Below, one piece after another: positions 4,901 through 48,357 of a stretch of DNA of 64,000 bases. Each line of letters opens with the position of its first letter. Position 1 is the first letter of the stretch. The notes below the pieces were generated by a model. It had not been told where the DNA came from. It did not search any database and worked only from the letters and a program-made list of their open reading frames with translations. Origin of the DNA: Eledone cirrhosa (Eukaryota); contig OZ024741.1 of NCBI GenBank assembly GCA_964016885.1, positions 324,198,001 through 324,262,000 of the forward strand, in the 5' to 3' direction. A program made the translations under genes and the position numbers.

Positions 4901-6549
4901 CAGGACTGCGGAAAGCAGCGTCGGCCTATGCCGACGTCATAACCGTAATGGTGTCGAAAACCTCGGAAATCGGGGTAATCGGCAACCTATTACAGCAATA
5001 CGAAACGTTGACAGGAGCAAGACTAAGCCCAAAGAAGTCTGTCGGTTTGCAACTCGGCACATGGAAAGGCAAACCCATGCCTTCCGACAGTGTCGTTGGA
5101 CGCTGGACGGAAGGACCAGTGAAATTGCTCAGGTCTTGTTTGGTCCAGACCTCCAGGTGGACAAGAACTGGAACGAGGTCACGGCCAAGGTGTTTGCACT
5201 CAACCAGAAGTGGGCTGAGTGCAAACTCTCCTTGAAAGGTCGAGCGGAGGTGGCGAATACTTACATAGCGTCCGTCATCTATTACTGCTGGACAGTAATG
5301 CCTTTTCCCCGCGAATACCTTACCGAAATGGAACGCCTACTCTTCAAGTTCCTCTGGAAGAAATAGGCTCCATTGGTGAGGAGATCCATCTGCTGTCAAC
5401 ACCCTTCTAACGGAGGGCTGAGCATGTCGTGGCTGATGATGCGCAGGCACGCGCTGAGGATACGCCATCTCCAGGTATTCCTAACCGGTGAACCGGTGTG
5501 GCTGTCGCTTGTAAGACAAGCTCTTCCGCAACTCGCCTCACTAGCAGAGTTGCAGTCCTGGGTCAAGCGAAGACCCAAAATGGGTGCCTGGCACCTCGAG
5601 TGGCTACAGGCGATCACAGCCCTCTACCAAGCGGAAACGGCAATCAGCAGGGACTCCACTTCGACATTCTATAGGGGATTAGTGGAGGATAAGTGCGACG
5701 ACGTTCTGGGGGAAACTCTAGGAATCGAGGAGGACCAACTGACCAGTCTGTTCGGGAGAACTTTCCGTCCAGGGCCTATGGATAACTTCCCGAGGTCTCT
5801 GGCCTGGCAGTGCTACCGAGGAGCTCTACCAGTTCGAGACAAAATCTACAGGCACGGACGCACTGGCAGAGATCCTGTCAAAAGGACCTGTCCAAGATGC
5901 GAGCAGGACATCGGAACCGTTCTGCACGCAATTGTTCAGTGCCCAGGGGTGACCGACTGTGGAATTATGTCGAACAGCTACTGTCACATGTGGGACGCAT
6001 CCAGTTGTCAGCTGAGTCCATCGTGAGGATCACTCCGCCGCCTTAATTTAAGAACGAAGAAGGGGCGGTTCTCCTCTGTCTGGTGGCTATGGCGAAAGAG
6101 GTAATATGGTGGACGAGGTTAAAAGGAGTGAGGCCAAACACCTTTCTCTCCGGACAACAACTTATCCCTTCTTTAAGTATCACCTCAGAAGGAAGGTGAG
6201 AGTGGAGAGAGGGGTGCTACACCCCAGTAAATTCGCTGAAAGGTGTGTGAATGTGGCAAAAATGACCCAAGTGAATTGGCTTCTCTGTATATAAACCTGT
6301 AGGTTGAGGAGGATAAACAGAGGGAAGACGCGAATACCTACAAAACGTGTACCTGGTGTTGAGGGTTGTTCTATCCACGGTGTGTAAAACAACCCCGCAG
6401 TAACGTTCACCCCTATTGGGGATTTCAATTGTTATTTTATTATATATAGTTTATTGTTATTTATTAATGTTAAAGTTATTTTCATGTAAAACCCCCGCCG
6501 TCACGTCTTATAATGTCCCATTTTTTGCGCCGCTGTGGCAAATAAAGAA

Positions 6550-6632: not shown

Positions 6633-7450
6633 AGACGTGTGTAACTTCGCGGAGAAGTTTCCGTTAATTTATGTAAGAAAAAAAACGTGAGTTTTTAGTT
6701 AAATTTTATATTATTGTGTAACTTGACCACCCGTCTGGACCTTCAGGTGGTGGGTCAACTCATTTTCGCCTTTACAGGGGCGAAATATCCATTTGAAACA
6801 TTTTTTCTCCATCGAATCTTGGAAAAAATATTGTAAAAGTTTGATTACGTTATGAACGCTGCGTCCAACGATAATGGTGGTGGAGAGGCGGTAAGACTAC
6901 AAAGCTCGCAGTCAACAACGTCTTCTTCACTAGATACTATAGAGAGGGAAGACGAAATGAAAATGTAAAAACGAATTCATATCCAAACAACACAAATGAC
7001 ACCAAACAGTTCAATGACAACAAAAATAACAGCAACACCAATAATGATGATAAAAGCAACAATGATAACAACAACAAAGAAAAAAATAAAGACAACACCA
7101 ATAACACCAGCATCAAAGACAACAACAACACCAAGGAAAATACGAATAATATCAACATCGGTGACAACAAGAATAACAACAACAATAACAACAATAATGA
7201 CAACACCACCAACACGGATTCTACAAAGAAACCAAAAATCTCCTTTGCAGAGAAAGTTTAAAAAAAGCAGGAACTGATATATCTCGACATAACAAATGCT
7301 GAACAACTTTTAAAGGACGCTAGGAGATATGTCACTTTCGAAAAAAATGGTGCTTTCAGCATCAATTCTCCGGTAGAAATTCGCAAGGAAACTACTCTCA
7401 AAACGATAGTTTTTAGGACAGTTTCCAATTCTACCCGAAAACCAGTCCAA

Positions 7451-8764
7451 TTGTCACAGAAAGAAATTGAACTGGTTTTCAAAAATTCAATGAATGATAT
7501 TGCATTCATTCAAAGAAGCAAACTTTTTGGGAGTATTTCGGTACTCATGAAGGATCAATTGACAGCCCAAAATTACTCTGTGTCGCCAATTGTATCGAAC
7601 CTGTACACCTTTTTCCCTACATACATGGGAAAAAGGACACAAAAGATCAGAATCACGAGTGTCACACCAAAGGTGAACATATGGTGGATACTGTGCGGCT
7701 TCATCAATTTTGATGAAGACAGAATACTGTCAGTAGGAAAGTCCCCCATAGATGTATTCAATGGGACTAGCATTGAAGTTCTGGTGCAAATGAGCCCAGA
7801 GCGAATAGCTATGATCCCACAACGTGTACTCCTGGACGGACTCACCTGCATAAACTTTTCGGTTGAGGCTAGGTGGCCTTCATGTTACCATTGCTTTAGC
7901 AGGGGTCACCTGAGGGCTTCCTGTCCTAAATTAATGAATAAAAAAAGGCTCTTCTGCCGACACCCATCAAAACAACACAACCACCAACACGACCACAACA
8001 ACAACAACACCAACACAAAAATAACCACAACAAACACAGTCCCACCCAACCCCACTCCACCTAAAACCACTCCAAAATCACATACAGACACAACAGCTCC
8101 CCAAGACATACCCCTCCCCAATCACACAGGCGATACAACAGATGAGACTATCTCGCCATCACCCAGTGAAGACGAGGGAGAACCCCATCGCTCGAAAAGA
8201 AAGAAAATATATCACAAAAGCAAAAAACCAGCAAGCACTACCACAAACATACAACCACCAACACAAACAACAAAAACATCACAAACAAAACCCCCACCTC
8301 CTGAAAACAAAATACCTACAACAAAACGAAAGCACACACAAGAACTACAGACAAAAACAAACACAACACAAGAAAATTACACTTACACTTACATAAACAC
8401 TGAAAACAAAACACTAATGGAGACCATCACGAACGATCCTTCGGTGAAAACCGAAGGGAAAACTTTCGCCCACTCTATTAAAAATAGCAAAAAAATGAAC
8501 CTAAAACTGATTAGGGTCCCTATACAAACTTATAGGTCCCTAAAAGAAACATTTGAGAAGGATGTGGGGAATTCCTGCGTGAAACCCCTCAACCGCGTCC
8601 TTCTCAAATGTCTCCCCACCCCAGACACCCCCATCCCACCAGACCCTACCCCACCAAACATCTCCGTCCCCACCCCACCGGAAACCACCACCCATCCAGA
8701 CAACCCCTCCAACACCCCCATGGAAATCGTGTGGCCTGGTCCCCAGGAGACGAAGGGTGAGTGA
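7451..8764 (+). CDS. Tx1 ORF1 (gag-like; zinc knuckle CYHCFSRGHLRASC; Pro/Thr/Lys-rich tail); probable original start ~6852 now frameshifted
   Basis: 437-aa ORF with CX2CX4HX4C ending 36 nt upstream of ORF2. Confidence 0.8.
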   Translation: MSQKEIELVFKNSMNDIAFIQRSKLFGSISVLMKDQLTAQNYSVSPIVSNLYTFFPTYMGKRTQKIRITSVTPKVNIWWILCGFINFDEDRILSVGKSPIDVFNGTSIEVLVQMSPERIAMIPQRVLLDGLTCINFSVEARWPSCYHCFSRGHLRASCPKLMNKKRLFCRHPSKQHNHQHDHNNNNTNTKITTTNTVPPNPTPPKTTPKSHTDTTAPQDIPLPNHTGDTTDETISPSPSEDEGEPHRSKRKKIYHKSKKPASTTTNIQPPTQTTKTSQTKPPPPENKIPTTKRKHTQELQTKTNTTQENYTYTYINTENKTLMETITNDPSVKTEGKTFAHSIKNSKKMNLKLIRVPIQTYRSLKETFEKDVGNSCVKPLNRVLLKCLPTPDTPIPPDPTPPNISVPTPPETTTHPDNPSNTPMEIVWPGPQETKGE

Positions 8765-10896: not shown

Positions 10897-10933
10897 CCTA
10901 TCTATCTATCTATCTATCTATTTATATATCTAA

Positions 10934-22000: not shown

Positions 22001-23388
22001 GGTCGTTGAGCAGGTGACCCTGCTTCCAAGATGACCTCAGGCCACGTACATTTATACTCCCTATACTAAGTACGGTCATGTTGGATGAGAAGCGGGGTAA
22101 GTGAGAAAGGATCACTCACCTTGATCGTGGGTGTATCCTCTGAAATCTGCAACTGCGTTGGGGAACTTTTGTTTTAAAAGTTTGTAATGTTCTATTTTGA
22201 TTCAATGATATTTATGTTTGTCGGGAGAGTTCTTGGTGTTGGTGGGGTGTAGTAGATGTTTTTCTCTGATGTCTGTGTGCTGCTTTATATGCTGTAAGAG
22301 TTCTTTATTTGCCATGTTTATGGCTGTGTACGGTTGGGGGGGGGGCGGTGATTTTGTTGCTGTTTTATTGTTGTTGTTGTTGGGTGTGTGTGTTTTGTTG
22401 TGTTTGCGGTGTTGGTGTTTTTGATGATGCTGGTGGTGCTGTGGTTGTTGTTGGTGGTGATGCTTGTGGTGGTGATGGTGATGGGCGTGGTGTTGCTGCA
22501 AGTCTCCTTGCAGCCTTTACCCCTCTTTGTCTGCCTTCGCTTTTGAAGGGTGAAGCTAAGGGGTTTTACCTTTTTACTTTTTTTGTGGCAGACCGTTTGC
22601 CACTCCCTCCCGCCTCACACTCCATGTCAGATTTCGTGGCGTCTGGGAGGGGTATGAGCTCCACCGCTGTTGGTGGTGGTAGTGGAGCCCGTTCCATCGA
22701 TTTTGCCGTCGGTGTAGCTACTGCGACTTTTGGTGTTATTGCCACTGCTGCCGCTGCTTTAGTTCTCCGGGGCCTTGGTATGGGTGCCACGGACGTTTCC
22801 CTCCTACTCACTATGGAAGAGTCTTCTGCCTCTGTTGCCTGCCCTGCTCTTGGTAGCAGCGGATCAGGCGTCGGAAGGAGGGGACCCTCTCTTGGATTTC
22901 TTCTGCGGGCAGAAGTCACTGAGGTGACCCTTCTGCCCACAGAGATAGCACTTTGGACGCCTTTCTTCCACTGTTATAGGGAGTTGGAGCCCTTCTTCGA
23001 GGTCTATGATGTCTGGGATGGCCTCGATGCACTCTTGGTCAGTCTGTATTAGCATTTGCATGCATATTCCTGACCGGTTATCTCTTCCCATTCTCTGTAT
23101 TTGCAGTATGGTGGTTTTCTCCATTCCAGCCATTACAGACTCGGCCAGCCAAGGTATGGGCACGTCGGGTGGGACCTGAGTCACTTTGACCCTCACAATT
23201 TTCTGCCCGCAGTAGGAGGGCACCAAGACTATCTCCTCACTCTTTAGGGTTTCCAAAGAGTGAGACTACGTTTCTTGGGGGGGTCTACTGTGGCGTACTT
23301 TTTGCCTCGGGTGATGTGGGTGTTGCGCGCCCAGACGCACCCCAAGGCCTTTTGGATTTGAGCCTTCGTGGCTCTCTCCACCCGATGT
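19012..23388 (-). mobile_element. Tx1 copy 5 (ATT lineage), inactive; partial ORF1 plus ORF2 with internal deletion
   Basis: ORF1 knuckle CYLCGQKGHLSDFC (22864-23256), ORF2 ATG at 22079, RT 19852-20505 (AYADD). Ends CCCTTGTGGCCAATATAGAAATC then (ATT)n. Confidence 0.92.
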
Positions 23389-26300
23389 TATTAATTTTGG
23401 CAATATTATTTCACAAATATGACCCTCCCCAAGTATAACAATATTTGTTTCGACACACGATTTCATATCAAAAACCTCGCAAAACTAATTCATCGCCGTT
23501 ATGGCATTAGCTTGTGCCAAGCTGAAAGGTTATTGAAAGACACTGTTTTCTGTTATATAAAAACTACAATAACAACAGAACAAATCCGCTTCTTAAAACA
23601 CTGTGTTTCATTCAAAATATACACAACAAACATATTAAAACAAGTAAATAATTTATTATTAAACAAAACACAAGCTGAACGACTAAAACACATAATAACA
23701 GTTAATATGAAAAGAACAACATACACAAAAGTTAACGAACTTTACAGACAGAAACGCATTAACGGTAAGGAAGTTCGAAATCTCACCACACCAAACGAGA
23801 GGGATGAACTCATGAGCGTCATTCGACGTGAAACGAAATACGCTCAAAACGAATGCAATAGGCATTTCAATAAGAAATTAGAATGGATGAATAAGAAAAA
23901 ACTAGAAGAAAGAAAAATAGAATATTCACAAAAATACCCAGATAACATCAGCAATATCCGTATGACTGATGTAGAACTACCGGAAGAATTTACCAATGAC
24001 CACACAGTAAATATTTATGGGAACACTTTAATCAGTGAACAAGAACAACAAATGCAGCAGCTGCCACCAAAATTTGCTATCTATAAAAAGAATAACCCTA
24101 TTGAGTGCAAAACGGAGCTGGAAAAGTGTTTCACAAAAATACGTTGGAATGCAAAAGTAAACAACAACAACTATACGGACAACAACAACAATAATAACGA
24201 TAGTAGTAATATAAACAATAACTCTGAGTATAGAAATAACAGCTATAATAGTAATAGTCATAACAATAACAATTGCAGGAGGGTGAGAAATAGTAATAAT
24301 GGTAATAATATTAACGATAGACAGAACAACAACAACAACAACCATAATAATAATAGAAACATTAACGGCAGACAAAGCAGCAGCTACCACAGCAGTAATA
24401 ATGGTAATAATACGAGTAACAACAACAACCACAGTGGTAATAATAGAAATAATACATGTAGCAACATTAATCATAGACACAACAACAACAAAAACAAGAA
24501 ACATATTAAAGGTAAACAACCACAATGGTAGAAATAACAGTAACAACAACAATAACGGTGGAGAAAACAACAACAATACATCTAGCAATCATAACAATAA
24601 TAATAATGCTAATGATAGGAACAACAACAACCACCATAATAACAATAATAGCAACACACCCAACTATGACGATAGATATAATGACAGCCCCTTAGAGAAA
24701 CTATTCTTCAATCCAGCTGACAAAACATATAAGATAGGTAATATCTACCCTATGAGGTTACCCTTTAATAAAAGGGTTTGTATACCACAACAAATAGATG
24801 ACGAGACAGAGGCACAGTTCACCATAGCTAGAAATAAGATTAGACAAATAGTAGACAGGTATACTAAGAGACAAAGCAGACTAGAGGTCCAACAACTTGG
24901 GAGGAAACCTGTAGAAGGCTTGGTTAGCCTCAAGGAGCGCACAAGGGATGGTGAGGTAGTATGTCTACTCACGGATAAGTCTGGTAGGATGTCAATAGTC
25001 AGCATGCCGACCTACATCAAGGCTATGCAACCCCACATCACCAACACGAGCGAAATTGCACAACAAATACATGATGGGAGAGAGAAAATTCTCAACGCTC
25101 ACATGATGATGTGGACCGACATCCTAAAGCCAAGCAGACGCACTGCCAACAACTTCCAGGCGTCTAACATTGGCATACCACCTTTTATGGGCTCCGCAAA
25201 GACCATAAGACAGTCGACGACCCGACAACAGGACCACCAACAAAACCTGTATGCGGAGCAAATATAGCTAGCAACTACAGGATTTCCAACTCGCTCTCAA
25301 TGGTTATACGCCCCATAATCAAGATGTCCCCAGATGTATGTGACAGTACAGAGGACCTCCTCAGCAGAATCAGTGAGTGCAACAAAAACAAAACCCTATC
25401 CAACTGCATAATAGGCAGTATGGATGTGGTATCACTGTACCCATCCATTAACATTGATTTTGCTGTGGAAAAATGTGTGGAGATGATCATTGAGAGTGAG
25501 GTGGAGTTCTGCGACGTCGACACAGACAAACTGGGCCTCCTACTTAGACTTACCTATGACACTGACTACATAGACAGCCATGACCGTAGACGTTTCTGTC
25601 CCAGTAGACCCATAAGAGGTAGACTCCCCACCATAACCTCAATGGCAAAAAAATCTCCCATGGGAAGATGGATTGGGTGGACCAAAGCTTATGGACCCCC
25701 CAAAACAATGATCGGGTAAGAAAAATGGTTGCACATGCAATAGGGGCTAGTATCAAAACTACCCTAAAGGGCCACATATTCAAATTCAACGAGAAGATCT
25801 ACTCCCAAAATGAGTGAGCAACCATTGGCGTCAGCATAGCTGGTGACGTTGCCAACCTTTTTATGGTATGGTGGGAAAGGAGACTCAAATATCTCCTTGA
25901 TGAGAGCTCCATAGACCTCATCATGTACTCTCGTTACGTAGACGACATCAATATAGTAATAAGGACATCCCCACAAGAGAGTACTAACAAGTTTGATTTA
26001 GAACGTAACACAATGGAAAGCATCCAGCAGATAGCTAATTCCATACACCAGAGTATAACTGTAAATATCGACTACCCTTCCAAACACCCTAACGATAGAC
26101 TACTTGTATTAGACACGGAACTCTGGATTAACACTATAGACGAGAGAGCCCAAATTCTCCACTCACACTACGCTAAACCCATGGCCTCCAAATACCTGAT
26201 ACACAAAATCTCAGCAATATCCAGTAGTGCTAAGTTTAATATTCTGATCGCAGACTTGGTACGAGTGATGAAGAACGTATCCCGCGTGTGCAACCCAACA

Positions 26301-27555
26301 GAAATGGAAAGACACATCCAACACTTTATCAACCGCTTGCAGCTCTCTGGCTACAACCAAAGAAACAGAATGAGAGTATACGAAGGAGCCACGGAGAAGT
26401 ATAAGACCCTCATAGAACTGGACATGAAAGGAATTTGCCCATTATACAGGAACAAATCATGGAATAGCTTAGATAGGACTAGACATAAGATAGGGAAAGC
26501 CACCTCATGGTTTGACAACCTGAGATACCAGAGTGTCATGTTTGTGGACGCTACCCCTGGAGGCAAATTAGCTAACCAGTGTAGAAAGGCCCTGAGAAAG
26601 ACCCACTTAAGATTAAGGTGGTGGAAAAGCCAGGAACCACCATAAAATCCCTCATCAGCAAAACCTACCCTTTTAAGAAAACCCACTGTACTAATAGGAA
26701 CTGTATTATATGTAAATTAAACCCCCGGATAAACTGTAAAACTAGAAACATAGTCTATAGCATAAGATGTACAAAGGGTACTTGCAGAAACATGACAACA
26801 ACATACATAGGCGAGACATCTCGTAGCATAGGTGAAAGGATAGACCAACACTGGGGGGAACTAAAAGGACAAAAAATGGTTCAGTACTATAGGAACATGC
26901 CAGACAACAACACCCAACATAGACAACATAGAAATTAGAATAATATCTAAACATAGAAATGACCCAGCAGATAGGCAAATCTGAGAGGCCAGTGAAATAG
27001 AACTTAGAAGGCCAAGGCTAAACAGGAAAAATGAATGGAATAACAACAACACCCAAACAAACAATACTGACTTAAGAGAAGTATAAATAAATAAATAAAT
27101 ACATACACAAGCACAATAACAACAAACGCATATAAACACACACTAGTAAACTAAGGTAGAATACAGTAACCAATACAAAGTCACCCAAATACGAACACAC
27201 ATCAAACACTATACACACACGCAAACGCATGCGCAGAGAAGACAAAAAAAAAATAAACAGAGTAAATAAAGATGGCGTAGGCATACAATACAACAGGAGG
27301 AAACATAATAGCACCACTGACGATGTTGCAGATGTGCAACGAAAGGACTTTGTTAGACTATATATGTGTTTGTGTCTATATTATATCTGTATTTTTACTG
27401 TTGGTCAGTCAATGGTAACACTGAGGGCCGAATAAATTAAATTAACCAATATAAAAGACACAGAAGCGAAAACCAACCAAACAGTGAGTGTGTTCTGTTA
27501 TTAATTCTGGCAATATTATTACACAAATATGACCCTCCCCAAGTATAACAATATT
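23386..27555 (+). mobile_element. Penelope-like element, near full length, probably Naiad-type, frameshifted
   Basis: TDKSG motif, GSMDVVSLYPSI, IGVSIAGDVANLFM, YSRYVDD, DYPSKH..RL.VLD, Cys cluster and GIY-YIG (IVYSIRC...YIGETSRS). Terminal direct repeat 23386-23447 = 27496-27555 (pseudo-LTR). Confidence 0.88.
27308..27362 (+). ncRNA. Hammerhead ribozyme-like motif in Penelope pseudo-LTR
   Basis: CTGACGA-T-GTTGCA gatg TGCAAC-GAAA, minimal stem III, bulged stem I. Confidence 0.6.
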
Positions 27556-27628
27556 TATATAAATATGTATATATATATGTTTATATATATATGATTGTAT
27601 ACACCCCCCCCCCCCACACACACACACT

Positions 27629-31191: not shown

Positions 31192-31580
<389 letters not shown>

Positions 31581-33799: not shown

Positions 33800-34630
33800 A
33801 CAGATACAATGAAATAATATCGCTGTAACTGCCATCACGCCACTTAGAATATTCTTAGCATTTATTTTGGCTGTTCGTCATAACCCTTATTTAGGCTATC
33901 CATTACGTTGGCTAACCATGACCGTCTCCCGAATGTTACCACATCAAACGTTAGTGACACCTCATCCATGTTTTCGATCGTAGTTAGTCTCTTTTCTCGT
34001 ACTGATTATGAAACTGTAAAATTCAATTATTTTGTCATCATAATGTTCAGGTATTTTTTGTGCTTTCTTATTTTCATTCTCGTTGCCAGTCCGCGCCGTT
34101 TCAAAAAACTGTAGCAGCAACTTGATGTGCCACGAAAATCATCTAGACGCCGTGCTACTGCGGTCACTTTGGTTCATTATTAATCGTTTCTGTTGATATA
34201 ACAAGACCCGAATTTCTCTCCGCAACTATTCAGTCCTTCATCTCTTGCTCCAGTTCTGGCCACTTAGCTGCAAACTGATGCAGGTTACGTTTAAGTCTTT
34301 ATGCAGGCTTCAACAGGTCCTCTTCTTTCCTCCATCGTAGCAGATCATTTTCTCAGTTGGAGGTACCCCAATATGCCTCTCTCCAGCCCTCTTTCCATGT
34401 GTTTTGGCATATTCAATCACTTCTCGCTTGTAGCCGATTGTGTAAAAGTGTCAACTCCTTGAGGTTTCCCTAATACCGGCAGTGCTAAAGATTTAAAGTC
34501 AAATCTTCTGAAGTTACGGATCACTCCTAACGTCAGCAGCTCAAGGTTTGAACTGGTTAAGACCATGGCTTTCATATAACAAGGAGGAAGCCTATGTTGC
34601 TGACTGAATGCAACACGTTTCATCATAGAA
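33800..34630 (-). mobile_element. pogo/Tigger-like DNA transposase remnant
   Basis: Manual translation across frameshifts gives VIEYAKTHGKRAGERHIG.PPTEKMI..WRK (Brinker-type HTH), KWPELEQEMKD*I...RNSGLV (CENP-B HTH) and FLKRRGL...KAQKIPEHY. Confidence 0.7.
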
Positions 34631-35111: not shown

Positions 35112-35183
35112 TGCGTCGGCCGGGAGTCGAACCCGGATCGACTGCTTGGAAGGCAACCATGCTAACCGTTACACCACCGACGC
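35112..35183 (-). tRNA. tRNA-Gly-TCC: tRNA-Gly(TCC)
   Basis: GCGTCGGTGGTGTAACGGTTAGCATGGTTGCCTTCCAAGCAGTCGATCCGGGTTCGACTCCCGGCCGACGCA. Perfect acceptor stem, A/B boxes, TTTTT terminator directly downstream. Confidence 0.95.
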
Positions 35184-37845: not shown

Positions 37846-37977
37846 GTGCCTTTTTACTCCCGTATATTTTATCACTCATTTTCTTGGGAATTCCTTACGT
37901 TTTCATGGAAATATCAATCGGACAGTTTGCCGGACTCGGACCGTTAAGTATCTGGAAAGCCAGCCCAGCTTTTAAAG
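37846..37977 (+). CDS. Internal exon of an SLC6 (NSS) transporter, TM2 region
   Basis: ttccag|...|gtaa, 132 nt, phase 1-1. Translates (G)AFLLPYILSLIFLGIPYVFMEISIGQFAGLGPLSIWKASPAFK(G), the hallmark SLC6 exon. Confidence 0.95.
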
Positions 37978-38451
37978 GTAACATTATCTTAATATTACTA
38001 TTTCCCCTAAATCCTGTCAAAATAGATCTTTACTTCCCATTAAGTTCTAATTTCAAAATATGTTGCAATCTTCTTTATGTTCATTCCTCTAGTATCAGAA
38101 ACCCACCCACTAGAAAGTCTACAACTCTCATTCACAAACAAGTATGACTTTGTAGTATGTATCATGCTGATGTAAGGATTTTACGTATTCTATGCAGTCA
38201 GGAGAAGACACAGTCATCCTCTGGACCCATCCTTCCTTGGTCTAGCGGAAGATCAAGGATATCAGCTGGAAGGAGAGTGGTCTGTATCAGCATTGTGTTG
38301 CTATGTTCTTTATCGATTCTTAAAAGACGAAAGGCAAAGGGAACTTTGGTAGTATTTGAGACCTGAATGCAAAAATCCGAGACATATATCCAACGCTCTA
38401 ACGACACAGGCAAGTCGATCGCTTTACTCGTTTAAGTAAAATACTGAATAT

Positions 38452-38575
38452 GTAATAATTGCTTCTACTTTTGGCACAAGGCCAGCATTACCCCAGCAAT
38501 ACCCCAGTACATTACTGGTGCTTTATTTTATCGACACCCTCAGGATGAGGACCATAACTCTATACTGCCAAGCCA
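38452..38575 (-). mobile_element. Nin-domain SINE, internally deleted
   Basis: Reverse complement of SINE tail and core (CTACTTTTGGCACAAGGCCAGC...TTTATTTTATCGAC). Confidence 0.75.
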
Positions 38576-38859
38576 ATGTAATAATTATCCTGTTGGTTGT
38601 GCTGGGCCTGCGAGTTTTGTTGGGGTTTTTTCTTGGTTTTAATTGCTAATAACCAGATGGTGATGAGTTGGCAGCTCAGCCTCTTACTTAACACGAACGT
38701 CCAGCATAGAATTGAAGAGATCAGAAGCAATGGCAAATTCAGTTATTGATCTCTGTTCTCGGCTTCCTTTATACCATGTGTATATATGGATATCTTTGTG
38801 GTGGAAGTCTGAAAGGGAAATGGTTCAAGACAAAAATGAAGGATCAATGAGTTCTTCCT

Positions 38860-39045
38860 TAACAGGCCAGCAATTGCGGAATGAAGGAGAAATTCGATTA
38901 TGTATTGACTCCAATACTTTCTCCCTACTTTATTTTGTCAGTTCCGGAAGGATGAAAGGCAAATCTTACCTCGACTGTACTTGAACTCAAAACGTAAAAG
39001 AAACTTGCATTTGTGTAATATTCTAACAATTCTACCATTCCATCT
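38860..39045 (-). mobile_element. Older SINE copy of the same superfamily
   Basis: GGAAGGATGAAAGGCAAA...CTCGAC...TTGAACTCA matches the reverse complement of core and B-box. Confidence 0.6.
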
Positions 39046-39428
39046 CCATACCACTAAAAAATACCATGCAATGCAAAAACAACAAATTGTAATACAAATG
39101 TATTACCTGAGAGCAGAGTACAACGATCCGTTTCAGATTAACAGTTGTGTGTAATTAAAACAATTTTCGCTGTTAAAATAATATCAACACTCCCATTCAT
39201 CGAAAATCTCTAGTCTTGGCGATAAATCGGAAATCGATATTAACATCTTTTTAAACATTTAAAAAGTTTTATTTGATGCTAATTTGTATAATGATCACTT
39301 TGACAAAGCATCATTATTATTATTATTGTTTCTACTTTAGGCACAAGGCCAGCAATTACCAAGTACAAGTAATGCACTGGCTAATTGCTGGCCTTGTGCC
39401 TAAAGTAGAAACAATTATTATTATTATT

Positions 39429-42400
39429 GGTCTAATCGGACGTCTTTTGCTCGCTCCCAGTAAGCCGCTTTATTTGCCTGTTAAAATTATTGGTTGTTAA
39501 ACATTTCTTGTTGTGTAAGGGATATAAGCCCTTAGTCTTTGCTCTGACCCAAATATTTGAACATTTTACTTTAAAAAAAACATGGCTGCCCCCCCCCCCC
39601 CCGTAATATGTCTGCTGTCGTGTGACAACGAGGTAAAAGTTAAGAGGAGGGTTAGTGAAATTCATACAACAGACACCACCACAAACAACAACAACAATGA
39701 AAACACTAATTTTGAAAAAAATACCACACCAACTACAAAATACAGACAAAAGGAAAAAATGACAACAAATGCAACAACGATATTAACACCACTATCATGA
39801 AAGTAAACAATGACCACAGCAACAATACAAATTGCACCGAAAACAACAACAACGGTGCCACCAAAAACACAACCAACTACAACAGTGATAACAGCAACAA
39901 CACCAACAACAACATTTGTAGCAGTAGCAACAGCACCAACAACAAGATCAGTAGCAGCAGTAGCTGCAGCAATAATGGCACCGCTGAAAAAGGGGCCACT
40001 TCTTTCGCAGGTGTGGCCCGAAATATAGAGACAGTGCTAGTCACAGAAGAGGAGATGGCAGTCGCAAGAGCCATGGTGTCGAGAAACGACAATAGAGTTT
40101 CCCTGAAACCTCCACCCGATTTCTTCAAAGACCAGCAGCTGCGCACGGTAAGCAAAATGTCACATCGGGTGGAGAGAGCCATGGAGGCTCAAATCCAAAA
40201 GGCCTTGGGGTGCGTCTCGGCGCGCAACACCCACAGCACCCTAGGCAAAAATTTCGCCACAGTAGACATAATTATCGTCACACCCCAACAGGCGTAATCT
40301 CACTCTTTGGAAACCCTAAAGTATGAGTAAATAGTCTTGGTGGCCTCCTACTGCGGGCAGAAAATTGTGAGGGTCAAAGTGACCCAGGTCCCGCTCGACG
40401 TGCCCATACCTTGGTTAGCCGCGTCTGTACTGGCTGGAATCGAGGAGAAGACCACCATACTGAAAATACAGAGAATGGGATGAGAGAACTGGTCAGGAAT
40501 AGGCATGCAAATGCTAATACAGATTGACCAGGAGTGCAGCGAGGCCATCCCAGACATACCCCTTCCAGACGCCACGGAATCTTACATGGAGTATGAGGTG
40601 GGAGGGAAGTGGCAAACAGTCTACCACAAAAAAAAAAATGAAAAACCCCTTAGCTTCACCCTCCAAAAGCGTCAGCACCAACAACAACCACACTACCACC
40701 AGCATCACCAAAAACACCAACATCGCAACCACAACAAAACACACACACCCAACAGCAACAATAAGAAAACAGTCACAAAATCACCCCTCCTCCAAAAAAG
40801 TACACATCCATAAACATGGCAAATAAAGAACTCTTACAACATATAAAGCAGCACACAGACATCAAAGAAAAAAAAACTACTACACCCCAGCAACACCAAG
40901 AACTCTCCCAACAAACATAAACATCATTGAAATCAAAATAGAACATTACAAACTTTCAAGACAAAAATTCCCCAACGCAGTTGGAGACTTCAGAGAGTCG
41001 GTTACCAAGAGAATATACACCGACATCCTCTTGGAAATACCCATGGCCAGCCAAAGCGACGGTTCTACTGTCCCTTCACCACACAATCAAGGTAAGTGAT
41101 ACTTTCTCACTTACCCCGCTTCTCATCCAACAAAGCTGTTCTTAGAATAGGCAGTATAAATGTACGTGGCCTAGGGTCATCTTGGAGGCAGGGTCACCTG
41201 ATCAACGACCTCAGGTCACTAAATATAGATGAGATGGCCATCAGCGAGACCAGAATCTCCGAAGCACGAGCCTTCGCACCAATCTTCGGCGGCTACGATG
41301 TATACGCATCTCCCAGCCCTCCAGGATCGGGTGGAGGGGTTGCCGTGCTTTTTTGGAGAGGCTTGCATCTCGCCATACGGGCCATCTTCCTGGACGCAGA
41401 AGGTAAGTCGATGGTGCTGGACGTGACCGGCAGCGAAGGCAATGCTTTCAGGCTAGTAGCCGTCTACGCCCCAACAGGGGCAGGTCGGCCAGATTTCTTC
41501 AGACGTCTAGAGACCTTTCTTGGAACGTCCCGCTCTTTAGTGTTAGTGGGCGACTGGAACGGTATCTTAGATGCACGCTGGGATTATGTGGGGCTAGTAG
41601 ACAGGGCAGGAGGGTGTAAAAGCCCCAACAACCTGCTCAGACGATTTGAACTGTCTGCAAGGTTTAGATTGGATTATACGAAGTGCCAATGTGGACATGG
41701 GCAAACCGCATCGGGTCATCCAGATCGTATTTAGATAGGGCATTCTGTAGGGAAACAGATAAGGCTAGTGTAGGTTGTCCACAATTTAAAGTAGTCGACT
41801 ACACTGACCACAAGTTTGTGATCTGTTAAGTTGACTTAGATAGTCCCCATAGGCAAGGGCCCGGCTGCTGGAAACTGAACGCGTCGTTCCCGGCGCGCAA
41901 AGCTAACAGAGACCGGATTAGCGAATTAGTTAAGCATGCGTTGACGAGTGCGATAATCAAGTACATGTGGTGGTTTACACTGAAAAGTGCTAATAGAGTA
42001 GAATCGATAAGGTTTAGCAAAGGAGTAGTGATAGAAGAAAATAGAGTAGAGGGAGAGTTAGTTAGAAAGCTAGAAGAGGCGTTTAGGATAGGCATCGCAA
42101 CCGACGTGCTTGCGGCAAGATTGGCATTCGACCAATTCTTCAACGCAAAGCACGAAGGCTGCGTTGTCAGAGCTAAAGCACGTGCTCTAAGACACGAGCG
42201 GACGAAAGCCGTTCAATGGGCCCGGGTAGTGGACGCGCGACGTGGCAACAAGTCCACAATTCGGTCTTTGCCTGATCAAAACGGGCGCATGTTGCTCGAA
42301 CCCGAGCAGATGTGTGTCGCTTTTCATCAACACTTTGCTCAATTGTTCGGGAGCGGCGGCGGGTCGGATCGGAGTATGGACTTCGGTGCATACCTCGACG

Positions 42401-44682
42401 GACTGCCGCGGCTCTCGATGACCGCAGCGCAGTGCTGCGGAAAGCCAATAACAGCAGGTGAAATACGGGAAGCGATGTTTGACAGCACGAGGGGTAAATC
42501 GTCAGGTTTGGATGGTCTGCCATACGAGCTTTATGCGTATATGTCAGACTTGTTCGGCGACCTCTTGGCAGATGTCTACTGCAACTGGCAGCAGAACGGG
42601 AGCATTCCCAGTTTTGTGAGCCGAGGATCGGTGGCGTTGCTGAGAAAAGACCCGAACAAGGTGACGTTATAGACAACTTCAGGCCGATAACTCTGCTAAA
42701 TGCAGAATTTAAGATTTTGGCAAAGGTGTTAGCAAAGAGATTGGAGCTTGTGGTCGGTGATTTGGTGGGAGAGGCGCAGACTTACGCCATTCCGGACAGA
42801 TTCATCCACGACAACCTCCAACTCATGCGATGCATCATAGAGAGGGTGGTTAAGGAACATGGCACGGGTGGGGCCCGGATCAACTTGAATCAATCTAAAG
42901 CATTTTTGGGGGTGAAGGATCACCTGTCGCAACCTTTCAGCACAATGCGCTCGGTCCCTCTTGTCCCTCTTGTACATACTGGCCCTCGAGTAGTTACTGC
43001 ACAAATTGGAGACGATGAGGGGGGTCCGATGAGGGGTGTCCGATGAGGGGGGATCCGTGTCAGCTTACGCCGACGACGTCACCGTGGTGGTGTCGAGCAC
43101 CAAACACGTCCAGATGCTCGGCACCGCTCTCAAGGAATACGAAGCGGTGACAGGAGCAAAGATAAACCAGGAAAATTCGGTGGGCTTACAACTTGGCACC
43201 TGGAGAGGCATTCCATGCCGCCCGACAGCGTCGTGGGGCCCTGGACGGAAGAACCGGTTAAATTGCTCGGGGTCTGGTTCGGTCCGGACCTCCAGATGGA
43301 GAAAAACTGGAGCGAGGTGAGGAGCAGGGTGGCCTCTCTCACCCAGAAATGGACCAAGAGGAGGCTGTCTCTGAAAGGCGGGCAGAGGTGGCGAATGCGT
43401 ACATAGCGTCCGTCATCTGCTATCACCTGACCGTCGTCCCTTGCCCCCGCCCAATTCTGACCAGAATGGAGCGCCTTCTCTTCCGCTTTTTGTGGAAGGG
43501 ACGTGCTTTCATAGTCGAACGATCCATTTGCTGTCAACACCCATTGGGTGGAGGACTAGGCATGCCGTGGCTGATGAGACCAAATATGCGATGAGGCTGC
43601 GACATCTCTGGTGCTTCCTTGACGGTGAACAGGTGTGGTCGCCGTTTGCCAGACACGCGTTTCCCCAGCTCGTCTTGTTGATGGTGTTGCAGTCCTGGAT
43701 CAGGAAAAGACCGAGAGATATCGCTTGGAAGCTGGAATGTCTCCAAGCGCTCACCGCCCTCTACCAGCTGGGCAGTACTATCGGTGGAACATCCACCTCG
43801 GCGTTCTATAGAGGGTTAGTGGAGGGAAAGAGCGACGACGTTCTCGGGGAGACCCTGGGCGTCGAAGACGATCAGCTGTTCGCTTTCTTCAAGAGAACTT
43901 TCAGACCGGGGCCTATGGATAACTTCCAGAAATTCCTGGCCTGGCAGTGCGACGCGCGCGCGTTGCCGGTTCGGGATAAGCTCTACAGGCACGGAGGTAC
44001 TGTCAGCCAAGTCTGTCCGGGATGCGCGCAGGGCGACGAAACCGTCCTGCACGCACACGTTCAGTGCCCGACGATTGCTAACCTGTGGAGCTATGTCGAA
44101 CAGCTGCTGTCGCGTGTAGGACGGATCCGGTTATTTGACTGAGTCCATTGTGCAGATAGCCCTGCCATCCTCCTTTAAAGAGGAGGAAGGGCAGGCAGTT
44201 TTCATCTGCCTAGGTAGCCATGGCGAAAGAGATTGTGTGGTGACAAGGTTGAAAGGGTTGAAGACGGACACTTTCCTCTTCGGCCAATCCCTGATTAAAT
44301 TTTTCAAGTTTGACTTGAAGAGCAAAATCTGGGTGATGAGGCAAGTGCTGTCTTCTAGTGGGTTTGTTGAAAGGTGGGTGAAAGTGTCGTGTCTGGTCCG
44401 AGTGAACGGGCCCGCTCTGCGTATGCACCTGTGGACTGAGGAGTTGGAAAACTGAGAGAAGTCAGGGTGGCCTTGGTCTTTTTTGTGTGGTTTTCGCCAT
44501 GAGCGACCCTCGGAGGTTTCCCCTTTTTGAGGGAATTTTTGTTGTTTGAATTTTTTTAATTTCTAGCCCGATTTTGTTATAACCTGTTTACACGACCAAA
44601 ACCCAGTTTGTATCGTCCTGTACTGTTCTGTGTCGTCTCTAATGTTTTTCTTCGTGTTAGCCCTTGTGGCCAATAAAGAAAC
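39429..44682 (+). mobile_element. Tx1 copy 6 (ATT lineage), near full length, inactive, in SLC6 intron
   Basis: 5' UTR, ORF1 fragments (39797-40297), APE (41096-41734), RT and zinc-finger fragments. Ends GCCCTTGTGGCCAATAAAGAAACC then (ATT)n; 5' flank is a SINE (ATT)n tail. Confidence 0.93.
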
Positions 44683-44693
44683 CATTATTATTA

Positions 44694-44724
<31 letters not shown>

Positions 44725-45254
44725 TATATGTTCGTTCGTTTGTTGACACGTACAGCACATCGCTCCCTTAAGTTTGTTGTTTTTCACACATTTAAATATA
44801 TATTTAAAAAAATAATTTTTTGTTGCAAAGTGCATATATAGCATGTCTTTGCCTTTCGGAAAGCAGACTTCATAATATTTGAATTTTAAAATTCTATTGA
44901 CGTCTATAAAAACCTATAAAACCAGCCAGAACTGCAAAATTCTGCATAATAAAAGCGTGCGTCATGAGTTTAATTCGGATTAGACTCTGAAGACTAATAG
45001 TAAGAATGTTGCCAGCTCCATCACAATAAATATCCTTGACAAAGCCACCAACAACAAAAGCAACAGTAACAACAACAATAACAACAAGAAAAGCAGCAGC
45101 AGCAAGAGCAACGGAAACGACAACAAAAAACAGCAGAAGCTGCAGCAAAAACATCGGCGACACCAATAACAGCAACAACAATAACAGCACAACATAAACA
45201 ACAACAGCAGCAGCAGCCTCAACAGTAGCAAAAAAGAAGCCCCAACAACAATAA

Positions 45255-45644
45255 CAACTGACAGTAGCAGCAGGCTCAACAACAACGGCAACAACAAAAA
45301 CTGTAGGACCCGCCCTACATCTACGGAAGTTACTTATTATGGCGGGTGATGTCGAGTCGAACCCTGGCCCATCCTGCGCGGGATGTTCCAGGACGATCCG
45401 ACAAGACTTCGTGCCCATTTCTTGCTCGACTTGCCGACGTATCTTCCACAGGATCTGCAGCGGCCTGACTCGAATACAGAAAAAGAGTCTTCAAGGATTC
45501 GTGTGTGGCTTCTGTCGGGGGAATAATGTCGTGCCTACCATCCGTCCTGCGGCGATCTCCATTCACCGATGTCAAATCTGGCATGCAAACGATGCCCTGC
45601 ATTGGCGATCGAGAGATACCATCACCAACTCGGCACATCCTTAG
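45255..45644 (+). pseudogene. 2A-like StopGo peptide followed by PHD finger (retroelement-derived)
   Basis: LHLRKLLIMAGDVESNPG|P then C-x2-C...C-x2-C-x4-H-x2-C...C-x2-C. Confidence 0.8.
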
Positions 45645-46189
45645 AGGAATTAGTCCGTCTCCCAATCGCACCTCTAGCGCTTCTGAGGAGGATCCTCAGT
45701 CGCCTGAGGTGAATCAAAAAAAAAAAAAACAAAAAAAACAACAACAACAACAGCAGCAGTTGGAGTAACAACGGTATTGGCAACAACAGCAACAACAAAA
45801 ACAACAACAGCTAAAACAACAATAACAAAAGACAAGCGCAAACAACAACGGCAGCAGCGACAATAACACCAACCACAACATCAGCAAGAACAACCACAAC
45901 TACAAAATCACGGTGGCAGCAAAGGCATTATTCATGAAGGACTTAAGTAGGAGAGATGAATGTTTGGCTCAAGCAATTCATAAAACCTTGTATAACATAC
46001 TGTTCTACTCTGATCAGGCATTTGTAGGCTCGAGAGTTTACAGAGTTTACTCTGAGGCTCTAACAATGTAATTTATGGTTGTACAAATTATTGTAAAGTT
46101 TGTAAAAAAAAGTGTTCTTTGTTCAGTCTTTATTGTTGTAACTATCAATTTTCTTTAACGACTGGCTGCTGAATTGGGGAATCCTAAAA

Positions 46190-47600
46190 ACTATTCAAAC
46201 CCAACATTAACCCCCCACCCACCCCCTCGCTGACTTGAGAAAAGCGACAGAAGAATCGGAGACGAAGGCGGTGAAATTGAGAGCAGGATGAAAAGATTGG
46301 ACAAAAGAAAGAAAACAGTCGAGCTGTTCTCGTGACAGAGAGGTGGCGCCGATACAGTCGTCAATATAACGACCGTATAGCTCAGGAATCGGTCCAGCCT
46401 ACTGGGAGAAGATCTTGGCTTCGACGTAACCAACAAACAAGTTGGCAAAGTGTGGACCCATTCTGGTTCCCATCGCTATCCCAGAGACCTGCTGATAAAA
46501 TTCACCCGAAAAAGAAAATCCATTGAGAGTGAGAACAAGCTCAGCCAGACGGCGAAGAGTGGTAGTGCTACGTGAAGGGGTAGAGCGTAAATCTAAAAAA
46601 TGTTGGAGAGCGTGGAGGCCGTCATCATGAGGGATGACCGTATAGAGAGAGGTAATGTCCAGGGTAAAGAGAAGGCAGGAGAGACCAGGAGAGAAGGTGA
46701 AAGAGTTGAAGAGTCTAAGGGCATGATTTGTATCGTGGAGGTGGGAGCGGAGATTGCCGACCAACGGAGCGAGGATGGTTTCTAAATATTCATAAATTAT
46801 CTCGGTGGGTTAGTTGCACGCAGAAACAGTAGGACGGCCGGGATTATTTTGTTTGTGTATTTTGGAGAGTAAGTAGAAAGTGGGTGTGCGAGGGGTGCGT
46901 ACAATAAGGTTGTTGGCTGTGGGGGATAGAAGAGAGTAGGCGATGAGCTTGTGGATGGTGGAGGACACGAGTTGTTGGTAGCCAGGAGTGGGGTAGGTGA
47001 TAAAGGGCGGTAAAAAGGCTATTGTGAAGCTGGCGGAGAGCCTCAGCCCTATAGAGGTCAGCGCTTCAAACCACTACAGCGCCACCTTTGTCAGCGGGTT
47101 TGATGACAATGTCATCGCGACGCCGAAGATTGCGAAGAGCGGAGAGATCAGTTCACGTGATGTTAGAGCGACGAGAATGCTGGTGGAAACGGAACCGATT
47201 CACAGTACGCCGGCAAGTATCGACAAAGGAGTCGAGGGTGCTGAACTGGCCAGAGCTCGGCGTCCAATGTGATTGCCGGCGACTGAGACGAGTGAAGTCA
47301 TCCGTCTGTGTCGATGATGGCGTGTCGTGAAAAAAATCTTTCAGCTTTAATCGACGGAAAAACCCTTCAATATCGGCATATGTGTGGAACTCGTCGCAGC
47401 TAGATGTGGTTGGTTTAAAACGCAAACCACGGGCGACGAGGGAGCGCTCAGCTTCGGAGAGTGGTAGGTCCTGGGGTAGTGTATCTACAGTGCAGCGACG
47501 TGAGGGAGTGAAATAGGCGAGGCGTAGGTGTCAAGGTGTTTGGGCAAAGCGTGTGCAGCTTCAGTGGTGGAGAGAGAAAAGGGGGTGGTATGTGACGGGA
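46190..47600 (-). mobile_element. Penelope-like RT fragment (different family)
   Basis: FFRRLKLK, PADK, LDITSLYTVIP, QVSGIAMGTRMGPHFANLF, RYIDD. Confidence 0.85.
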
Positions 47601-47674
47601 TAGAGAGGTTAGGGTTGGAGGTGATATAAGTATGGGTGGTGACGGCAGGCGGAGAAAAGGGTGAAAGAAAGAGA

Positions 47675-47743
<69 letters not shown>

Positions 47744-48099
47744 TGGTGTTGTGGCTTACACGGTTTTAAATAATACTGTTTTGAACATATGTGCTCGGAA
47801 ATTATTTCTTAAAATGTCCAGAAAATCTGTAAAACTTTTATCGTCTTGGTTCCTAATAAATCATATCACCTATAACCTAACAACTAAACAGCTATTGTTA
47901 TAATTCTTTTCCTGGAGTGTCTCAATTTCAAAACTACCTGACTGTATGTCTTCTCTAAAACATCGATGCATTCAAGATCATTCAAAGCTTGTGAATAACA
48001 GGGTTTGTTGTGAAACCAATCGACCACGTAACACTCGGGCCGTTCGGTAACATTCTTCCTCCCACTGTTTAATTTTTTTTTTCTGTTCTATATTTACAG

Positions 48100-48357
48100 G
48101 TATTGGTTATTCCATGATAATTATTGCAACCATTCTTGCTATCTACTACGCCGTCATTATAGCATATTCTTTTTACTTCTTCTTTGCCTCATTCCGAAAG
48201 AATTTGCTGTGGTCCAGCTGTTTAAATGTGTGGAATAGCTGCAACTGTTTTACAGAAACACAGAATGCCAAGTTCAAATCCTTCACCCGCTTGCTGGATG
48301 GTCCAAACTTTACCGATTTTAACACTTTTCTTAGTGAAAAGCATTCACACTGTTACA
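48100..48357 (+). CDS. Next SLC6 exon, TM3 and start of extracellular loop 2
   Basis: tttacag|...|gtaagt, 258 nt, phase 1-1. (G)[49 protein letters not shown]...; splices in frame to the previous exon (FKG|IG). Confidence 0.93.

Follow-up and report, generated by a model that had tools for sequence, protein, structure and literature searches.

Long interspersed elements (LINEs) are generally regarded as intron-free bicistronic RNAs, and the proteins of their open reading frames (ORFs) are thought to act in cis. Hairpin-masked major splice donors are known from retroviruses, HIV-1 SL2 being an example. Among described transposons, the Tx1 clade of LINEs combines an ORF2 with an APE endonuclease and reverse transcriptase (RT), an RRM/CCHC-type ORF1 and microsatellite targets (PMC4494074, PMC5203782). 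The long terminal repeat (LTR) element copia of Drosophila splices out all of pol to give a spliced gag RNA (Yoshioka 1990, via PMC5580714), and the shGAG form of plant Ty1/Copia elements (EVD, BARE1) has a conserved U1 site at the end of gag, with U1 acting in both splicing and termination (PMC5580714). The spliced products described for human L1, SpORF2 (PMC2896524) and spliced integrated retrotransposed elements (SpIREs; PMC5860796), lose 5' untranslated region (UTR) or ORF1 sequence. Here, a stretch of 64,000 nucleotides from Eledone cirrhosa (GCA_964016885.1, contig OZ024741.1, positions 324,198,001 to 324,262,000, forward strand; hereafter the window, numbered from its first letter) was analysed. 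It consists of microsatellite-rich animal DNA with eight decayed non-LTR elements that carry an APE endonuclease and RT, and a strong 5' splice-site motif, or donor, sits at the ORF1 stop of all four Tx1-type copies that retain the ORF1/ORF2 junction. These copies are named c1 to c4, c3 being copy 5 of an earlier note on this DNA, and their donors are as follows.

2858 to 2868, plus strand: c1 donor AAG/GTAAGT, G of GT at 2861; ORF1 ends K-R with the stop TAA (2862-2864) in another frame; ORF2 ATG at 2905.
8754 to 8764, plus strand: c2 donor AGG/GTGAGT, G of GT at 8757; ORF1 ends K-G-E with the stop TGA at 8762-8764; ORF2 ATG at 8801.
22112 to 22122, minus strand: c3 donor AAG/GTGAGT, G of GT at 22119; ORF1 ends Q-G-E with the stop TGA at 22114-22112; ORF2 ATG at 22079-22077.
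41089 to 41099, plus strand: c4 donor AAG/GTAAGT, G of GT at 41092; the last ORF1 codons are Q-G-K, with the stop TGA at 41097-41099.
41132 to 41134, plus strand: c4 ORF2 start position, with ATG mutated to AAA, then the APE endonuclease frame.

G/GTRAGT overlaps the ORF1 stop in four of four copies, in phase 1 in c2, c3 and c4, and lies 44, 44, 40 and 40 nt ahead of the ORF2 start in c1, c2, c3 and c4, respectively; the positions, motifs and distances that the earlier note had given for a strong donor 40-44 nt before ORF2 are all confirmed. The U2-type 5' splice site consensus is MAG/GTRAGT, and the sites read AAG/GTRAGT in three copies and AGG/GTGAGT in c2. By duplex energy against a U1 5'-end motif, the four donors rank 1 to 4 among 1550 sense GT sites (eight fragments, 27,824 nt), with values of -10.9 to -12.5 kcal/mol versus only -6.5 kcal/mol for the exon donor of the host intron that holds c4 in sense. 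Among 1854 antisense GT sites scored as a control, five are at or below -11.1 kcal/mol, two of which are hairpin arms. The chance of GGTRAGT in a 60-nt segment is 3e-4 to 1e-3 per copy at local composition. The last ORF1 residue swaps between K and E while GTRAGT stays, and the GTAAG/GTGAG variation tracks the donor consensus. In c1, which is frameshifted elsewhere in the element, the frame of the ORF1 end may reflect decay.

The four copies represent only two independent lineages: the TATC lineage (c1 and c2) and the ATT lineage (c3 and c4). (TATC)n flanks c1, c2 and the copy at 10933, and ATT repeats terminate c3, c4 and three more copies. ORF2 DNA identity is 77% and 89% within the two lineages and 65-68% between them; their ORF1 proteins are 28% identical, and blastn gives no ORF1 alignment between them.

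Further lineages were obtained from a scan of GTDB contigs, which gave 47 loci, 44 of them (L001-L044, on 17 contigs) from record CAXXMW01, labelled as a bacterial metagenome-assembled genome (MAG). These contigs are head-to-tail arrays of intact two-ORF Tx1-type LINEs in units of 6.4-6.8 kb and are probably mis-binned animal (host) DNA; Rfam found no RNA-gene target in the inter-unit stretch of L003. Lineage 3 comprises L001-L039 and L041-L043 (42 loci, counted as one lineage) and lineage 4 comprises L040 and L044. Lineage-3 ORF2 sequences show 92-99% DNA identity to one another, and approximately 45% DNA and 35% amino acid identity to the window. In 59 of 59 non-redundant lineage-3 junctions, selected by a match to the ORF2-start pattern, the ORF1 stop TAA is directly followed by G/GTAAGT, 13 nt ahead of the ATG, and G/GTAAGT is invariant while positions +7/+8 vary. 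In the five stretches that were scored, this donor ranks 1st to 4th among 409-449 GT sites. Because the lineage-3 GTAAGT is non-coding and lies after the stop, ORF1 codons are not the cause of the motif, and the refuting condition set by the earlier note itself, that the motif amounts to ORF1 C-terminal codons plus stop, fails. GGTRAGT occurs only one to three times per 6.5-kb stretch, and the chance of finding it within 20 nt of a stop is, as a rough estimate, near 0.01.

Overall, three of the four Tx1-like lineages with DNA possess a donor where the structural ORF ends, at ORF1 identities of 23-30% across them, and between lineages the stop shifts relative to the donor, lying either inside it (in two frames) or ahead of it. 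A tree of the endonuclease region, with unnamed rows, joins the two window lineages with a support of 99/100, and the shared donor may reflect ancestry or convergence, both of which are compatible with this tree. The sole lineage-3-related copy elsewhere (L046, from another MAG) is decayed and has lost the GT. A distant L1-type element handled apart (L045) has its best donor, TTG/GTAAGT (1653; 1 of 243 GT sites), 187 nt ahead of the ATG in an inter-ORF spacer of approximately 480 nt. L047 was dropped as a weak non-retroelement match. As a separate observation, lineage-3 subfamilies (L003, L026, L030) share 92-99% ORF2 DNA identity but only 45-60% amino acid identity in the ORF1 N-terminal halves, which suggests swapping of the ORF1/5' part.

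ORF1 proteins from other sources were also compared. P0202 ends Q-G-K and P0179 ends E-G-K-S; both are full-length matches 25-31% identical to the window ORF1 proteins, and their ends, judged from the protein alone, are compatible with the same phase-1 motif. Of 120 ORF1 C-termini, 44 reach the terminal motif, and all are of the lineage-3 type, where the donor follows the stop, and hence are uninformative. A single-sequence search with the c2 ORF1 gave no matches.

The conservation of the motif across these lineages makes it highly likely that the site at the ORF1 stop is a selected U1 site or 5' splice site in several Tx1-type lineages. The favoured explanation of its use, to which a probability of roughly 0.45 is given, is that the ORF1-end donor is spliced to an acceptor at the 3' end to yield an ORF1-only mRNA, much as in copia. 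U1 would bind the donor, and in part of the transcripts the ORF1 stop would be joined to an acceptor near the 3' end with removal of ORF2, the product serving to make excess ORF1 protein, while unspliced RNA would serve ORF2 synthesis and transposition. By the established rule, nonsense-mediated decay spares a message whose exon junction lies at the stop, and the predicted spliced message would escape it. In the ATT lineage, a hairpin would damp the donor.

Candidate acceptors are clearest in lineages 3 and 4. In lineage 3, 43 of 43 units carry a second donor, GTRAGTA, 15 nt past the ORF2 stop, and a pyrimidine tract plus TAG follows approximately 250 nt beyond it (45/45). Across eight lineage-3 subfamilies all seven letters of GTAAGTA are invariant while every one of the 20 columns after them varies, versus 58% invariant columns overall. 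The acceptor has the richest tract of 23 invariant AGs, with pyrimidines at 13 or more of 16 positions and a zone of 29 nt free of AG, and AATAAA sites lie downstream. In lineage 4, CAG/GTAAGT lies 41 nt past the ORF2 stop, with a strong acceptor after another 143 nt. These sets are unexpected in a retrotransposon.

L003, 9486 to 9734: apparent canonical 3'-UTR intron just after the ORF2 stop.
L040, 4567 to 4710: apparent canonical 3'-UTR intron just after the ORF2 stop.

From their sequence, the donor-tract-acceptor sets of lineages 3 and 4 look like 3'-UTR introns whose acceptor the ORF1 donor could share, and the conserved 3'-UTR acceptor of lineage 3 lends support to an ORF1-only mRNA. A broader and more tentative proposal is a retrovirus-like splicing programme in this Tx1 branch, in which alternative donors after each ORF would be joined to one common 3'-UTR acceptor. 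Three RNAs would result, namely one for ORF1 alone, one for ORF1 and ORF2 whose 3' UTR is spliced, and an unspliced form for transposition, and one lineage would have added a hairpin that throttles the ORF1 donor. Within the window, the sites that could take part in splicing are weaker or more local.

6300 to 6307, plus strand: c1 ORF2 stop TAG with a second stop 2 nt on, a candidate weak acceptor for a phase-1 donor; the same pattern is at 13253 (plus), 16065 (minus) and 55347 (plus).
44630 to 44660, plus strand: c4 pyrimidine tract and TAG (44658-44660) just ahead of AATAAA, a candidate acceptor peculiar to c3 and c4.
1987 to 1997, plus strand: c1 5'-UTR donor-like TGG/GTAAGT, G at 1990; c2 has a weaker counterpart, AAC/GTGAGT, at 6687.
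41400 to 41410, plus strand: second strong donor-like site inside the c4 ORF2, in E-G-K codons; also at 21808 (minus) in c3, and absent in c2 and the three loci checked.

Four of the seven window 3' ends have the ORF2 stop TAG with a further stop 2 nt beyond it (TGA, TAA, TAG and TGA), and a fifth has TAA plus TAA. A phase-1 splice to such a site would bring ORF1 to an immediate stop; the pattern was spotted post hoc and its tracts are weak, making it a lead only. An acceptor whose use would take out the enzyme ORF yet retain a stop is present in lineage 3, is weakly suggested in c1 and three further copies, and was not found for c3 and c4. The window copies have no second donor after the ORF2 stop, and inspection of c1 to c4 revealed no internal deletions starting at GT donors. 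Donor-like GTAAG, mostly with weak U1 pairing, lies 30-135 nt into the 5' UTR of most lineage-3 variants (L003, L004, L017, L026, L030) and of c1 and c2, and one lineage-3 subgroup has a tract plus CAG 2 nt ahead of the ORF1 ATG. Two side observations concern similar sites. AAG/GTGGGT recurs approximately 75-100 nt ahead of the ORF2 stop in c4, in the copies at 10933, 16063 and 52835, and in the loci, in the same synonymous codons (R-W-V) across lineages only 43-54% identical in DNA, and is a possible further U1 site. The TATC lineage has a 5'-UTR inverted repeat, TTTCGCC...GGCGAAA, at 6769-6790 in c2, where its loop contains a candidate acceptor at 6777, and in shorter form at 2107-2120 in c1.

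Several observations weigh against splicing to an ORF1-only mRNA. No acceptor conserved across the seven 3' ends of the window was found; TGG replaces the ORF2-stop TAG in c3 and c4, and a splice to their terminal acceptor would give a stop-less ORF1 message. The lineage-3 acceptor could serve the nearby second donor alone, and in lineage 4 the ORF1 stop has no donor and is separated from ORF2 by 5 nt. The unspliced junction is kept in all four window copies that retain the ORF1 end, and a search of the 47 loci for three predicted junctions yielded no spliced retrocopy. Two of the four full-length ORF1 matches, P0162 and P0288, lack an ending of the P0202 type, although these can also be called uninformative, and a G-K/E ending occurs in 1 of 26 long-tailed ORF1 matches, most of which are fragments. 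Human L1 splicing is described as mostly a dead end, as for SpIREs (PMC5860796).

The most serious rival, although an unlikely one, is that U1 binding to the site leads to no productive splicing and serves to tune full-length RNA, through self-attenuation by nuclear retention or decay or through control of 3'-end formation or read-through. In the window copies no acceptor comes near the donor in conservation, and donor-like sites recur past both stops and in 5' UTRs. There is also precedent, in that a 5' splice-site motif in unspliced mRNA blocks export (PMC4380460, PMC9074902) and U1 at the EVD donor prevents termination (PMC5580714). There would, however, be little to protect, given that the canonical AATAAA/ATTAAA is absent from six of nine ORF2 stretches and occurs one to two times in c1, c2 and c4 versus 0.4-1.6 expected, so that the protection from premature polyadenylation suggested in the earlier note is poorly supported; moreover, lineages 3 and 4 possess a full donor-tract-acceptor set in the 3' UTR. 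A considerably less probable account holds that the motif has no function in the RNA and is a by-product of common descent, the stop and the last ORF1 codons, and that the hairpin is a local accident. The motif does spell G-K/E-stop in c2, c3 and c4, with TGA providing +6, the window holds only two lineages, lineage 4 transposes without the motif, and covariation is absent. Set against these points are the non-coding GTAAGT of lineage 3, invariant in 59 of 59 junctions, the second non-coding GTRAGT kept in 43 of 43 units, the low chance estimated for such a motif near a stop, and the retention of the motif in c1 although the stop is in another frame.

Translation offers a further explanation, judged improbable, in which the motif is a termination-reinitiation signal for ORF2. 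LINE ORF2 is commonly made by reinitiation, which counts in its favour, as do the purine-rich AAGG and the position of the motif at the stop, 13-44 nt ahead of the ORF2 AUG. A termination upstream ribosome-binding site (TURBS) is marked by UGGGA about 40-80 nt ahead of a stop and start that lie close together, whereas UGGGA lies within 100 nt of the AUG in only one of nine regions, and there at 8 nt. The stop-to-start gaps (40, 36, 32, 14 and 5 nt) span all three frame offsets, the same motif occurs past the ORF2 stop, where nothing restarts, and its variation follows the donor consensus. The stop-restart signal proposed earlier is thus poorly supported in its TURBS form, and reinitiation may occur on unspliced RNA independently of the motif. 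Least probable of all, by a small step, is a mini-intron that fuses ORF1 to ORF2, or a donor that joins ORF1 to downstream host exons. The spacer is pyrimidine-rich, with in-frame AGs 52 nt downstream in c1 and 59 nt in c3 and c4, and c4 lies in sense within a host intron; but the first AG of c2, at 37 nt, is out of frame, and the lineage-3 stop precedes the donor, which makes fusion impossible there. No fused form was seen among 15 ORF2 relatives fetched of 20 matches, which are apparently single-frame gene calls, and host acceptors would be no heritable partner.

For the favoured splicing of the ORF1-end donor to a 3' acceptor, copia is the closest parallel: the donor lies near the end of the structural ORF and the intron spans the enzyme region, leaving a structural-protein-only RNA, which is the predicted outcome for the Tx1 elements. 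Copia, however, is an LTR element with one ORF in which splicing creates the gag stop, whereas the elements studied here are non-LTR, have two ORFs rather than a single gag-pol ORF, and possess a stop of their own in ORF1. By analogy, the Tx1 elements may act like copia yet are no member of it; the trick is known from copia LTR elements, and its use by these LINEs is a prediction. Plant Ty1/Copia elements likewise have a U1 site that ends the structural ORF and a donor better conserved than the acceptor, but they use a short intron and premature polyadenylation, and no conserved acceptor or poly(A) signal was found nearby in the Tx1 elements. Human L1 shows that an L1-group LINE can have functional splice sites, including a 5'-UTR donor comparable to those of c1 and c2; use of the Tx1 donor would, by contrast, remove ORF2, and this donor is kept across divergent ORF1 lineages. 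A published splice donor at a Tx1 or LINE ORF1 stop was not found in titles and abstract openings of mostly non-subscription literature, and Repbase/Dfam entries and supplements may describe one.

The earlier note had further claimed that a 9-bp hairpin, with one G-U pair in c3, masks the donor, and its geometry is confirmed.

41091 to 41115, plus strand: c4 9-bp hairpin over the donor with a 7-nt loop, -13.2 kcal/mol, z -5.4 (51-nt segment).
22096 to 22120, minus strand: c3 hairpin with the same stem and one G-U pair, z -3.1 (51-nt segment).

The stem is more stable than shuffled sequences in the ATT lineage, although the c3 z-score drops to -0.9 in a 90-nt segment. The TATC-lineage folds give z-scores of -1.2 (c1) and +0.3 (c2) in a register that differs from the ATT-lineage stem, so the similar imperfect stem claimed for c1 exists as a fold but is not significant. 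Between c3 and c4, one stem change retains pairing as G-U and one change lies in the loop, and none of the nine pairs shows a two-sided change. In lineage 3, base pairing is possible between the donor and the start of ORF2, with a significant z-score in one of five variants and no covariation in 16 pairs. A conserved hairpin switch is therefore not indicated, as compensatory changes are absent and stability beyond shuffles is confined to c3, c4 and that one lineage-3 variant; a universal hairpin was rejected on the same grounds. When the four junctions were folded to a consensus, a weak stem of 8 pairs (-2 kcal/mol) emerged, two of them two-sided; this stem was discounted because it comes from four sequences and has a register other than that of the claimed stem. 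Rfam has no match at the hairpin site. The predicted unpaired fraction of the ORF1 donors (0.02-0.47) overlaps that of controls (0.35-0.44).

Masking of the donor is nonetheless plausible in the ATT lineage, since the stem energy of about -12 to -13 kcal/mol is similar to that of the U1 duplex (-11.5 kcal/mol). As in HIV-1 SL2, the donor lies inside a stem that would limit U1 access, but SL2 is in a 5' leader, and the Tx1 stem reaches significance in the ATT lineage alone. Wherever a stem pairs perfectly with a donor, its 3' arm, here ACTTACC, automatically matches U1 and reads as an antisense donor, and the U1-like arm described earlier is accordingly true by complementarity and carries no separate evidence. 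Rfam gave no snRNA or structured RNA at the sites in the window, in 12 loci or in the L003 inter-unit stretch, and the arm is thus not a captured U1 fragment. The hairpin might tune splicing, silence a donor whose acceptor has been lost or spare host genes, the last because c4 lies in sense in an intron with a much weaker donor of its own. Of the regulated splice or U1 switch originally proposed, the selected 5' splice-site/U1 motif stands, on the strength of its position after the stop in lineage 3, and the general hairpin switch is at best weakly supported.

The classification of the elements follows from both ORFs. ORF2 carries Pfam domains PF03372 and PF00078, as in the L1/Tx1 group of non-LTR elements, and the L030 ORF2 matches L1 ORF2p, its closest solved relative, at 1.7e-70 versus 1.9e-27 for R2. 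The first two atlas hits bear the names L1 ORF2 (0.97) and TX1 149 kDa (0.96). ORF1 is Type I-like, with an RRM region and a CCHC knuckle; zf-CCHC was found in the c3 ORF1 and, below the cut-off, in L040, and ORF1 atlas neighbours bear zf-CCHC, RRM or ZCCHC3-like domains. With their microsatellite targets, the window elements fit the Tx1 clade as published in ORF2, ORF1 and target type, judging by these sequence features and a tree with unnamed rows only; the targets differ in being (TATC)n and (ATT)n. No Tx1 entry was present in the searched file of a bivalve curated library, in which sequences are cut at 400 letters and most other files of which lay outside the search. All 3' ends of window copies and of lineages 3 and 4 share a terminal motif of CCTYGTG followed by AATAAA, which is a likely recognition signal for reverse transcription.

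The features that surround the donors include exons of a host SLC6 transporter (PF00209).

7262 to 8764, plus strand: c2 ORF1, 500 open codons with an RRM-like region and CCHC knuckle.
37846 to 37977 and 48100 to 48356 (the second from 48100 onward), plus strand: host SLC6 exons (SNF family; sodium:neurotransmitter symporter).
37978 to 48099: host SLC6 intron of approximately 10 kb, holding c4 and a PHD-containing LINE.
39716 to 44724 (5' end approximate), plus strand: c4, decayed Tx1-type element that ends in (ATT)n and lies in sense within the host SLC6 intron.

Other LINE remnants at 45045-47600 are a PHD-finger frame (45255-45644, plus) and an RT fragment (46399-46809, minus). A Penelope-like element at 23395-27590, with RT-like and GIY-YIG-like frames recognised by eye and no Pfam hit, adjoins the truncated 5' end of c3, and a related repeat lies at 31262-31576. 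Rfam identifies a tRNA gene at 35112-35183 (minus); a second tRNA-like stretch is near 34530, and many repeats resembling short interspersed elements lie around them.

The presence of a donor at the ORF1 stop across lineages whose ORF1 proteins are only 23-30% identical implies that normal expression of these elements involves the spliceosome or U1. If LINEs do make an ORF1-only mRNA, they obtain surplus structural protein in the same way as copia, and ORF1 protein must work in trans, contrary to strict cis preference. Strong sense donors in intronic copies, such as c4 inside the SLC6 gene, could affect host splicing, and this may be the reason why one lineage masks its donor.

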